This document shows, piece after piece, positions 16,452 through 16,876 of a stretch of 16,876 nucleotides of DNA; the stretch's first letter is position 1; every line of letters starts with the position of its first letter. The notes under the pieces are model-generated. The model saw nothing but the letters and a program-made list of their open reading frames with translations, was not told where the DNA came from and did no database searches. Position numbers and translations under genes: made by a program. Source of the stretch: a virus; the IMG/VR virus record IMGVR_UViG_3300009514_000122. The stretch is one strand, 5' to 3'.

Positions 16452-16876
16452 TTATAATCCTTCTTCTTCAATTATCGTATCCCTGACCTTAGTCAAGACT
16501 TCTCCCAACCAATTTAACCCTTTCCAGTTTGCAGGATCTTCCTTGGCAGAATCTTTCATCCCAATTCCGATACCCCATATCTTGTCATACGGACTAGCTT
16601 CCACCAATAATGTTCCTCTGGTGGCTAGGAGTTTTTCTTTCAATTCTGGATTCTGAGTAAACTTTGCGTAGTTCCCATCATAGACAATATCCCTGGCAAC
16701 CTCATTCCACTTTTCCAAATCGAAATTCCTTACCAATCTCCCATAGGCTTTGTGTTCGGCGGGGTTTTCGGTTTTCATTATCTTCATGAAATATTCTTTG
16801 TCATCAAAGTAAACCGCCTTCATGGCCATCATGTATTGTTCCGCACAACAAAACTTTACGTTATTCACAACAAAAG
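16452..16876 (-). CDS. NADAR (YbiA-like, DUF1768) domain protein, 3'-proximal part; the N-terminus lies beyond the window end
   Basis: Motifs CAEQYMMAMKA, RNFDLEKW, LLVEASPYDKIWGIGIG and WKGLNWLGEVLTKVR match the NADAR consensus (SEHxFQAxK, FD..W, LVE.sP.D.iWGiG, G.NlLGkiLM.VR). The frame is open upstream of the M at 16868 to the window edge. Confidence 0.8.
   Translation of the reverse strand, partial: FVVNNVKFCCAEQYMMAMKAVYFDDKEYFMKIMKTENPAEHKAYGRLVRNFDLEKWNEVARDIVYDGNYAKFTQNPELKEKLLATRGTLLVEASPYDKIWGIGIGMKDSAKEDPANWKGLNWLGEVLTKVRDTIIEEEGL

Follow-up and report, generated by a model that had tools for sequence, protein, structure and literature searches.

The NADAR gene fragment and its phage context

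The window, i.e., the whole stretch of 16,876 nucleotides analysed here (IMG/VR virus record IMGVR_UViG_3300009514_000122), carries all of its substantial ORFs on the minus strand. At one edge (16452–16876, minus strand), we found an ORF that has a TAA stop codon at 16454–16452 and is uninterrupted up to the window edge; translation of 16874–16455 gives 140 residues, which are the C-terminal portion of a NADAR protein. This 3' part of a NADAR-family coding sequence was annotated from the ORF itself, from the profiles PF08719 and TIGR02464, and from an AlphaFold2 model compared by Foldseek. An earlier note on this DNA had placed a NADAR domain at the window edge and had named a PF08719 search among the tests of that claim. 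Indeed, its coordinates were right, and the fragment matches PF08719 (NADAR, DUF1768) strongly, with E = 8.6e-49 and 166.4 bits against a gathering score of 35.1; the alignment of the 140 residues spans profile positions 32–162 of 163. Also, the fragment matches PHROG 1017 (3.5e-47) and scores 144.6 bits with the NCBIfam model TIGR02464 (“riboflavin biosynthesis intermediates N-glycosidase”), for which the cut-off is 73.7. When a database of 5.8 billion sequences was searched, 4515 proteins matched the fragment at E ≤ 1e-10, the top one with 65% identity, and the top relatives (60–65% identical) were stand-alone proteins of ~155–180 residues. Judged from these matches, the family assignment is far above the level expected by chance.

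The gene is known here from its 3' part only, and all statements on residues made below cover the visible 140 residues. By comparison with 84 relatives, the N-terminal segment missing from the fragment amounts to ~20–30 residues (median 24), and in the homologs this segment contains the conserved K-F-T-F-F-W-x-G-P-F-S-Q-W, namely the FTFFW-GPFSQW hairpin; the NADAR superfamily has its N-terminal beta-hairpin here, with the motif F-S-N/Q-F/W. In a search for the 5' end of the gene, the exact 50-mer at the window end had no match in IMG/VR or JGI metagenome contigs, and the exact products of three complete window ORFs, searched with the same aim of a 5' extension, had no database match. The AlphaFold2 model of the 140-residue fragment has a pLDDT of 83.9, and the only significant Foldseek matches of this model are the P. 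nicotianae NADAR (8BAU, TM 0.71) and E. coli YbiA (2B3W, TM 0.69). The sole low-confidence part of the model is a clade-specific loop described below (pLDDT 56–59), and the predicted structure has the YbiA-like helical core fold in the visible part. With moderate confidence, we take the fragment to be the C-terminal five-sixths of a stand-alone, ~165-residue NADAR-family N-glycosidase from a jumbo or huge tailed phage.

Just 7 nt downstream of the NADAR stop codon and on the same strand, a tRNA-Leu(CAA) gene was detected by ARAGORN (16369–16444, minus strand). There is no terminator-like site between the two genes, and the tRNA is probably co-transcribed with NADAR; promoter and terminator scans around the NADAR gene gave nothing above the shuffled expectation. 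The tRNA gene is followed by a BCS1-like AAA+ ATPase (15044–16351, minus strand), which was recognised by PF00004 and PF08740 (BCS1_N + AAA) and by phrog_7485 (8e-81). The longest ORF of this ATPase extends from a TTG codon at 16396 (15044–16396) and overlaps the tRNA gene, so that the start is probably the ATG at 16351. The ATPase is ~36% identical to “BCS1” of the Tenacibaculum jumbo phage pT24 and has matches in 256 phage records; on sequence grounds it marks jumbo-phage DNA and is no demonstrated partner of NADAR. A weak similarity of this ATPase to the anti-phage IetA/IteA ATPases was noticed as well.

Further downstream, the window encodes a Na+/Ca2+ exchanger-family membrane protein (7957–9171, minus strand; PF01699, 5e-36; TIGR00367, 1e-35), which is an unusual auxiliary gene in a phage, and two ORFs matching phrog_5698 of unknown function (9095–9670 and 10306–10962, both minus strand; 4e-8 and 1e-7, respectively), which appear to be paralogs ~1 kb apart. 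About 13 kb downstream of NADAR, we also noticed an 867-residue protein with a shoulder domain of the major vault protein (MVP) at 782–3385 (minus strand; PF11978, 1.3e-21). Homologs of this MVP-like protein were found on 45 IMG/VR contigs (33–49% identity) and, at 39–40% identity, in three uncultured huge phages of 462–735 kb; it seems to represent a family of vault-protein-like genes conserved among huge phages.

As for the NADAR protein itself, the best match in the phage collection comes from a 595-kb uncultured phage, homologs are present in 778 phage records, and relatives occur at 415 IMG/VR loci, many of them on contigs of 200–570 kb. At the DNA level, only the tRNA and a 54-bp patch matched known phages. 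These matches are best explained if the window is a section of the genome of a jumbo or huge phage, and the Tenacibaculum phage match gives weak hints at a host in Bacteroidota. On this reading, the presence of a NADAR gene is expected rather than surprising; the fragment matters little on its own and helps to mark the window as huge-phage DNA.

Active-site residues and NADAR type

Residues were mapped by aligning the fragment to the P. nicotianae (Pn) NADAR crystallised with ADP-ribose (8BAU), which is the best PDB sequence match of the fragment (E = 6.4e-15), and the ligand-binding and catalytic roles of the Pn residues are those described by Schuller et al. (PMC11543638). In fragment numbering, all of the listed catalytic and ligand residues within the visible part are present: namely, Glu12, Lys19, Arg46, Trp56, Glu92, Asp97, and Trp100. 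The codons of Glu12, Lys19, Glu92, Asp97, and Trp100 were verified directly against the window sequence. Among 85 viral members of the clade, furthermore, Glu12, Lys19, Trp56, Glu92, Asp97, and Trp100 are invariant, and Arg46 is kept in 81 and replaced by Lys in the remaining four.

All of these residues lie on the minus strand and fall into three segments of the alignment to 8BAU. The first is the motif A-E-Q-Y-M-M-A-M-K (residues 11–19, 16818–16844), in which Glu12 (16841–16839) corresponds to Pn E43 and E88 of DarG1 from E. coli C7 and would have a catalytic role by alignment; Lys19 (16820–16818) corresponds to Pn K50 and C7 DarG1 K95 and would bind phosphate. The catalytic Glu, on which the earlier note had made its assignment depend, is thus in place as Glu12, and its description of the block as “SEHxFQ” needs amendment: the block reads AEQYMMAMK, in which Glu and the Lys further along are conserved and Gln stands at the position of His. 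Taken one residue further, the motif reads C-A-E-Q-Y-M-M-A-M-K in the window protein and SSEQYFMKRK in the active P. nicotianae NADAR. The second segment (16707–16739) extends from Arg46 (16739–16737, Pn R79) to Trp56 (16709–16707, Pn W89), both of which are predicted from the alignment to contact the pyrophosphate. The third is the motif V-E-A-S-P-Y-D-K-I-W-G-I-G (residues 91–103, 16566–16604) with Glu92 (16601–16599, Pn E125), which is the acidic residue defining the subfamily, Asp97 (16586–16584, Pn D130), and Trp100 (16577–16575, Pn W133). Immediately after this motif, the alignment reveals the clade-specific loop I-G-M-K-D-S-A-K-E-D-P-A-N-W-K-G-L (residues 104–120; 16515–16565, minus strand), which is found also in phi92 gp223 and is absent in E. 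coli YbiA and in the Bas32-type NADAR.

The residue at the position of Pn E125 distinguishes the types of NADAR: Glu characterises the YbiA subfamily in the broad sense and Asp the DarT1-linked DarG1, alias BC4488 (PMC11543638, PMC11125620), and His is found in T4 AdfN/gp30.3 (PMC11257639). With Glu92, the window protein is classified by its sequence as a Glu-type NADAR (YbiA subfamily sensu de Souza & Aravind) and not as the His or Asp type. When the fragment was compared by BLASTP with the experimentally tested phage NADARs and E. coli YbiA, the best match among the tested NADARs was phi92 gp223 of the Bas60 type (40% identity over 136 residues, E = 4e-29), followed by YbiA (31% identity, E = 1e-11) and slur09 “YbiA” of the Bas32 type (29% identity, E = 5e-10); T4 AdfN (gp30.3) was not matched. 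Both published primers for NADAR^Bas60 match the ends of the phi92 gp223 gene exactly, and both of those for NADAR^Bas32 match the ends of the slur09 “YbiA” gene exactly. According to Johannesman, Carlson & LeRoux 2024 (PMC11257639), NADAR^Bas60 neutralises DarT1, and phages sensitive to DarTG1 are rescued by it.

Candidate function and the gene neighbourhoods of relatives

We lean, if only somewhat, toward the view that the window protein is a phage N-glycosidase that removes ADP-ribose from bases and thereby counters ADP-ribosyltransferase defences of the host. We infer its activity, substrate, role, and mechanism from the biochemistry of the family, and what supports them here are the family, the fold, the visible catalytic residues, the phage context, and the similarity to the Bas60 type. 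In the proposed mechanism, Lys19, Arg46, Trp56, Asp97, and Trp100 would hold an ADP-ribosylated base by its ADP-ribose moiety, and Glu12 and Glu92 would hydrolyse the N-glycosidic bond that joins the nitrogen of the base (N2 of guanine, possibly that of cytosine) to C1'' of the ribose, releasing free ADP-ribose and restoring the unmodified nucleic acid. During infection, it would erase the marks set on phage DNA or RNA by DarT1-type or similar toxins of the host and would serve as a counter-defence enzyme of the “orphan antitoxin” kind.

Indeed, hydrolysis of guanine-ADPr in vitro is common to all NADARs tested to date, among them YbiA, T4 gp30.3, EPEC NADAR, DarG1, and the P. nicotianae NADAR (PMC11125620, PMC11833690), and a counter-DarTG1 role was reported for NADAR^Bas60, NADAR^Bas32, and AdfN (PMC11257639). 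The earlier note had stated that phage NADARs reverse the guanine ADP-ribosylation by DarT, and this holds for DarT1 (PMC11257639, PMC11125620, PMC11543638); its hedged label of an anti-defence candidate was also a fair one in view of the phage context and of the nearest tested relative, which is reported to neutralise DarT1. By this analogy, we consider the label of an anti-defence enzyme plausible. YbiA and T4 gp30.3, nonetheless, are active in vitro and yet give no rescue of DarT1 toxicity in uninfected cells (PMC11125620), and the 40% identity to the Bas60 type is no guarantee of the same specificity in vivo.

Among the lesser rivals, it appears very unlikely that the protein performs YbiA-like metabolic damage control, i.e., that it acts on reactive intermediates of the riboflavin pathway as the product of an auxiliary metabolic gene that takes no part in defence. 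N-glycosidase activity in the riboflavin pathway had been ascribed to the family in the earlier note, which is correct for YbiA, and the window protein shares with YbiA the subfamily-defining Glu, is 31% identical to it, and scores well above the cut-off of TIGR02464. TIGR02464, however, passes not only YbiA (170 bits) but also phi92 gp223 (109.4 bits), which belongs to the type reported to neutralise DarT1; the name of the model therefore does not separate functions, and we dropped it as functional evidence. Also, YbiA resembles the window protein less than the Bas60 type and the P. nicotianae NADAR do and is devoid of its loop, and phage NADARs are almost absent from the YbiA-like housekeeping group (PMC11257639). 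No riboflavin genes were found in the window or in 85 related loci, where the recurrent neighbours are genes for NAD/ADPr metabolism and photolyase.

It seems quite unlikely, too, that the protein serves an ADP-ribosylation of the phage's own, either for self-immunity to, or reversal of, a phage ADP-ribosyltransferase (ART) or within a phage-borne toxin–antitoxin or superinfection-exclusion module. In T4, the NADAR gene 30.3 sits ~3 kb from alt, early co-expression with ARTs has been noted (PMC9503650), and toxin–antitoxin pairs of NADAR and ART do exist, namely DarTG1 and YarT-YbiA (PMC11125620). The fragment matches the PADLOC candidate defence component PDC-M42C (3.9e-43), which is the sole hint for a defence module, but PDC-M42 is an unvalidated candidate, and the NCBIfam model for anti-phage NADAR, NF053876, gave only 38.8 bits against a cut-off of 240. 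Moreover, none of the window ORFs that were scanned yielded an ART, DarT, or toxin-like domain, and no ART recurs as a neighbour among the 85 loci.

The counter-defence reading on ADP-ribosylated bases has its main rival in soluble derivatives of ADP-ribose, and the evidence for this comes from the gene neighbourhoods. We examined the ORFs within 4 kb of NADAR at 85 viral loci of clade members with at least 50% identity. A NadV/NAPRTase-family phosphoribosyltransferase was a neighbour in 30 of the 85 loci, followed by a Macro domain (23/85), Sir2 and NMNAT-Nudix (14/85 each), PRPP-synthetase-like Prs (13/85), and photolyase (12/85). Except for photolyase, these neighbours are related to NAD/ADPr; they lie on the strand of NADAR in at least three different gene orders, and at least one of them is present in 35 of the 85 loci and in 21 of the 60 NADAR clusters dereplicated at 75% identity. 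This association of NADAR with NAD/ADPr genes had already been published (PMC9503650) and is reproduced here. Since the clade is linked at least as often to genes of NAD+ salvage, Macro, and Sir2, the substrate may not be DNA, and the neighbours fit a role on soluble derivatives of NAD+ or ADP-ribose at least as well as one on DNA.

According to this rival, which we regard as possible but distinctly tentative, the enzyme acts on soluble N-glycosidic ADPr adducts (cADPR-like, base- or amino-acid-ADPR signals, or NAD+ by-products) and blunts NAD+-based immunity together with NadV/NMNAT (NARP2-like), Macro, and Sir2. Relatives of the same clade often adjoin the genes listed above, the NAD-linked members (51–55% identity) and the unlinked ones resemble the window protein to the same degree, and the gene link has been interpreted in this way (Iyer et al., PMC9503650); furthermore, DUF4326, which is tied to ADPr processing (PMC9503650), is found two genes upstream of NADAR at locus L002. 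The 16 kb of visible sequence downstream of the window NADAR, however, contain no NAD-pathway, Macro, or Sir2 gene, and no NAD/ADPr genes were found within 4 kb at the loci of the eleven closest relatives (L001, L002, L015, L013, L022, L017, L016, L021, L010, L047, and L038). Action on a soluble immune signal has so far been shown for no NADAR, whereas every tested NADAR does act on base-linked ADPr (PMC11125620, PMC11257639, PMC11833690). A stronger form starts from the loop insertion of this clade and from its repeated position between NadV/NMNAT/Prs and Macro/Sir2 genes in huge phages. In this form, which we regard as unlikely, the clade would degrade soluble N-linked ADP-ribose immune signals or toxins, e.g., cADPR-like or amino-acid-ADPR messengers, and would feed the ADP-ribose thus set free into the reconstitution of NAD+ by the phage instead of performing a DNA repair-type counter-defence; if true, anti-defence proteins that erase signals in this way would form an enzymatic class of their own, and a new one.

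Even more remote is a variant in which NADAR works with a vault-like MVP shell of the phage, which is drawn from the single contig L020 (IMGVR_UViG_3300028840_006907, 469 kb; shared with L122). On this contig, a NADAR ORF (7941–8777, 278 residues) lies directly upstream of an MVP-like ORF (8852–11293), 75 nt apart, and a DUF5662 gene comes after the latter. This is the only one of the 45 MVP-like loci with a NADAR of the same clade within 10 kb, and we rejected a functional link between NADAR and MVP along the lines of the vault and vPARP; the restraint with which the earlier note had treated this coincidence was justified. At three further MVP-like loci, a distant NADAR (~30% identity) lies within 10 kb, one 482-kb contig has NADAR and the MVP-like gene more than 100 kb apart (L058 and L105), and no NADAR was found within 20 kb of the MVP-like gene in the huge-phage genomes LR756500 and LR756501. 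NADARs are common in large phages, and the proximity is hence no evidence of a functional link; we treat it as coincidence or loose shared ancestry. The NADAR ORF of L020 carries an unannotated C-terminal extension of ~120 residues.

A few other features of the neighbourhoods were noticed. Synteny with the loci of the closest homologs (L001, L002, L010, and L013) revealed nothing in common except NADAR. A module of NADAR and an AAA ATPase was considered, as an AAA gene adjoins NADAR in L013/L014 and L060; these ATPases are only ~25% identical to the window ATPase, and a conserved pair was rejected because this identity is confined to the generic AAA core. Near the 58%-identical NADAR of L013/L014, we found genes for a 2H/Acb1-like phosphoesterase, a Nudix protein, and an RNase R-like protein (2840–3391 and 9110–9583), a set that resembles an island of genes for counter-defence or RNA repair. 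Two huge-phage loci, L010 (LR756511; 10001–10411 and 19910–20233) and L016 (8001–8411 and 14846–15193), have a second NADAR, ~30% identical to the window fragment and 7–10 kb from the first, which suggests NADAR paralogs with different specificities within one genome. In 12 loci, namely L052, L053, L078, and nine others, a photolyase and an unknown gene of 157 residues are located ~4 kb upstream of NADAR and form a second conserved neighbourhood that bears no relation to NAD salvage; contigs of giant-virus MAGs (GVMAG) are among these 12.

Comparison with known NADAR systems

From its sequence, the window NADAR is best regarded as a new sequence within a class of accessory genes that is well documented and very common in large phages. 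It adds a sequence from an uncultured phage to the Glu-type, Bas60-like clade, whose substrate may be either a DNA/RNA adduct or a soluble ADPr derivative, and the invariant set of residues and the conserved neighbourhoods provide ready mutants and partners for assays of this clade.

The antitoxin DarG1 (E. coli C7 and G. lovleyi) shares with the window protein the superfamily and the conserved Glu and Lys of the first motif, and its chemistry, i.e., the hydrolysis of guanine-ADPr, is assumed by analogy to be the same in the window protein. The third catalytic position, however, is occupied by Asp in DarG1 and by Glu92 in the window protein, and the DarG1/BC4488 subfamily was rejected on this ground. 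DarG1 also has a basic N-terminal extension for DNA binding and a gene adjacent to darT1; no darT was seen in the window, where the visible (downstream) neighbours of NADAR are the tRNA-Leu and the AAA ATPase. Searches of the PDB with the fragment, by sequence or by profile, detected no DarG1-type chain. T4 AdfN is likewise a phage-encoded member of the NADAR superfamily with a similar size and is used against DarTG1, but it has His in place of Glu92 and is tuned to the hydroxymethylated DNA of T-even phages (PMC11257639). The AdfN/T4 gp30.3 family was excluded by the presence of Glu92, by the lack of a match to its profile PF08010 in the fragment, and by the BLASTP result described above.

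E. coli YbiA (2B3W) and the P. nicotianae NADAR (8BAU) resemble the window protein in the fold and in the catalytic set of the Glu type, with ~30% identity. The latter differs in being a eukaryotic enzyme with a fold extension of its own, and YbiA is without the clade loop, is encoded in a LexA-controlled neighbourhood of dinG/rhlE/ybiB, and acts in riboflavin damage control. Given the 31% identity, the extra loop, and no rib, dinG, rhlE, or ybiB neighbours in the window, we rejected an assignment to the housekeeping group of K-12 YbiA. The NADARs linked to NadV/NadM in large phages (Iyer et al. 2022, PMC9503650) belong to the same clade as the window protein (51–55% identity), but unlike theirs, the neighbourhood of the window gene is free of NAD-salvage, Macro, and Sir2 genes on the visible downstream side.

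Among these systems, phi92 gp223 from an Escherichia phage comes closest: like the window protein, it is a stand-alone protein with Glu at the subfamily-defining position and with the loop after the WGIG motif. The two are merely 40% identical, nonetheless, and come from different phage lineages and hosts; phi92 gp223 alone has two more insertions, one of 11 residues near the N-terminus and one of 7 residues before the GR motif, neither of which is present in the window clade. By its relatedness and the shared loop, both judged from the visible sequence, the window protein belongs with the NADAR^Bas60 type.
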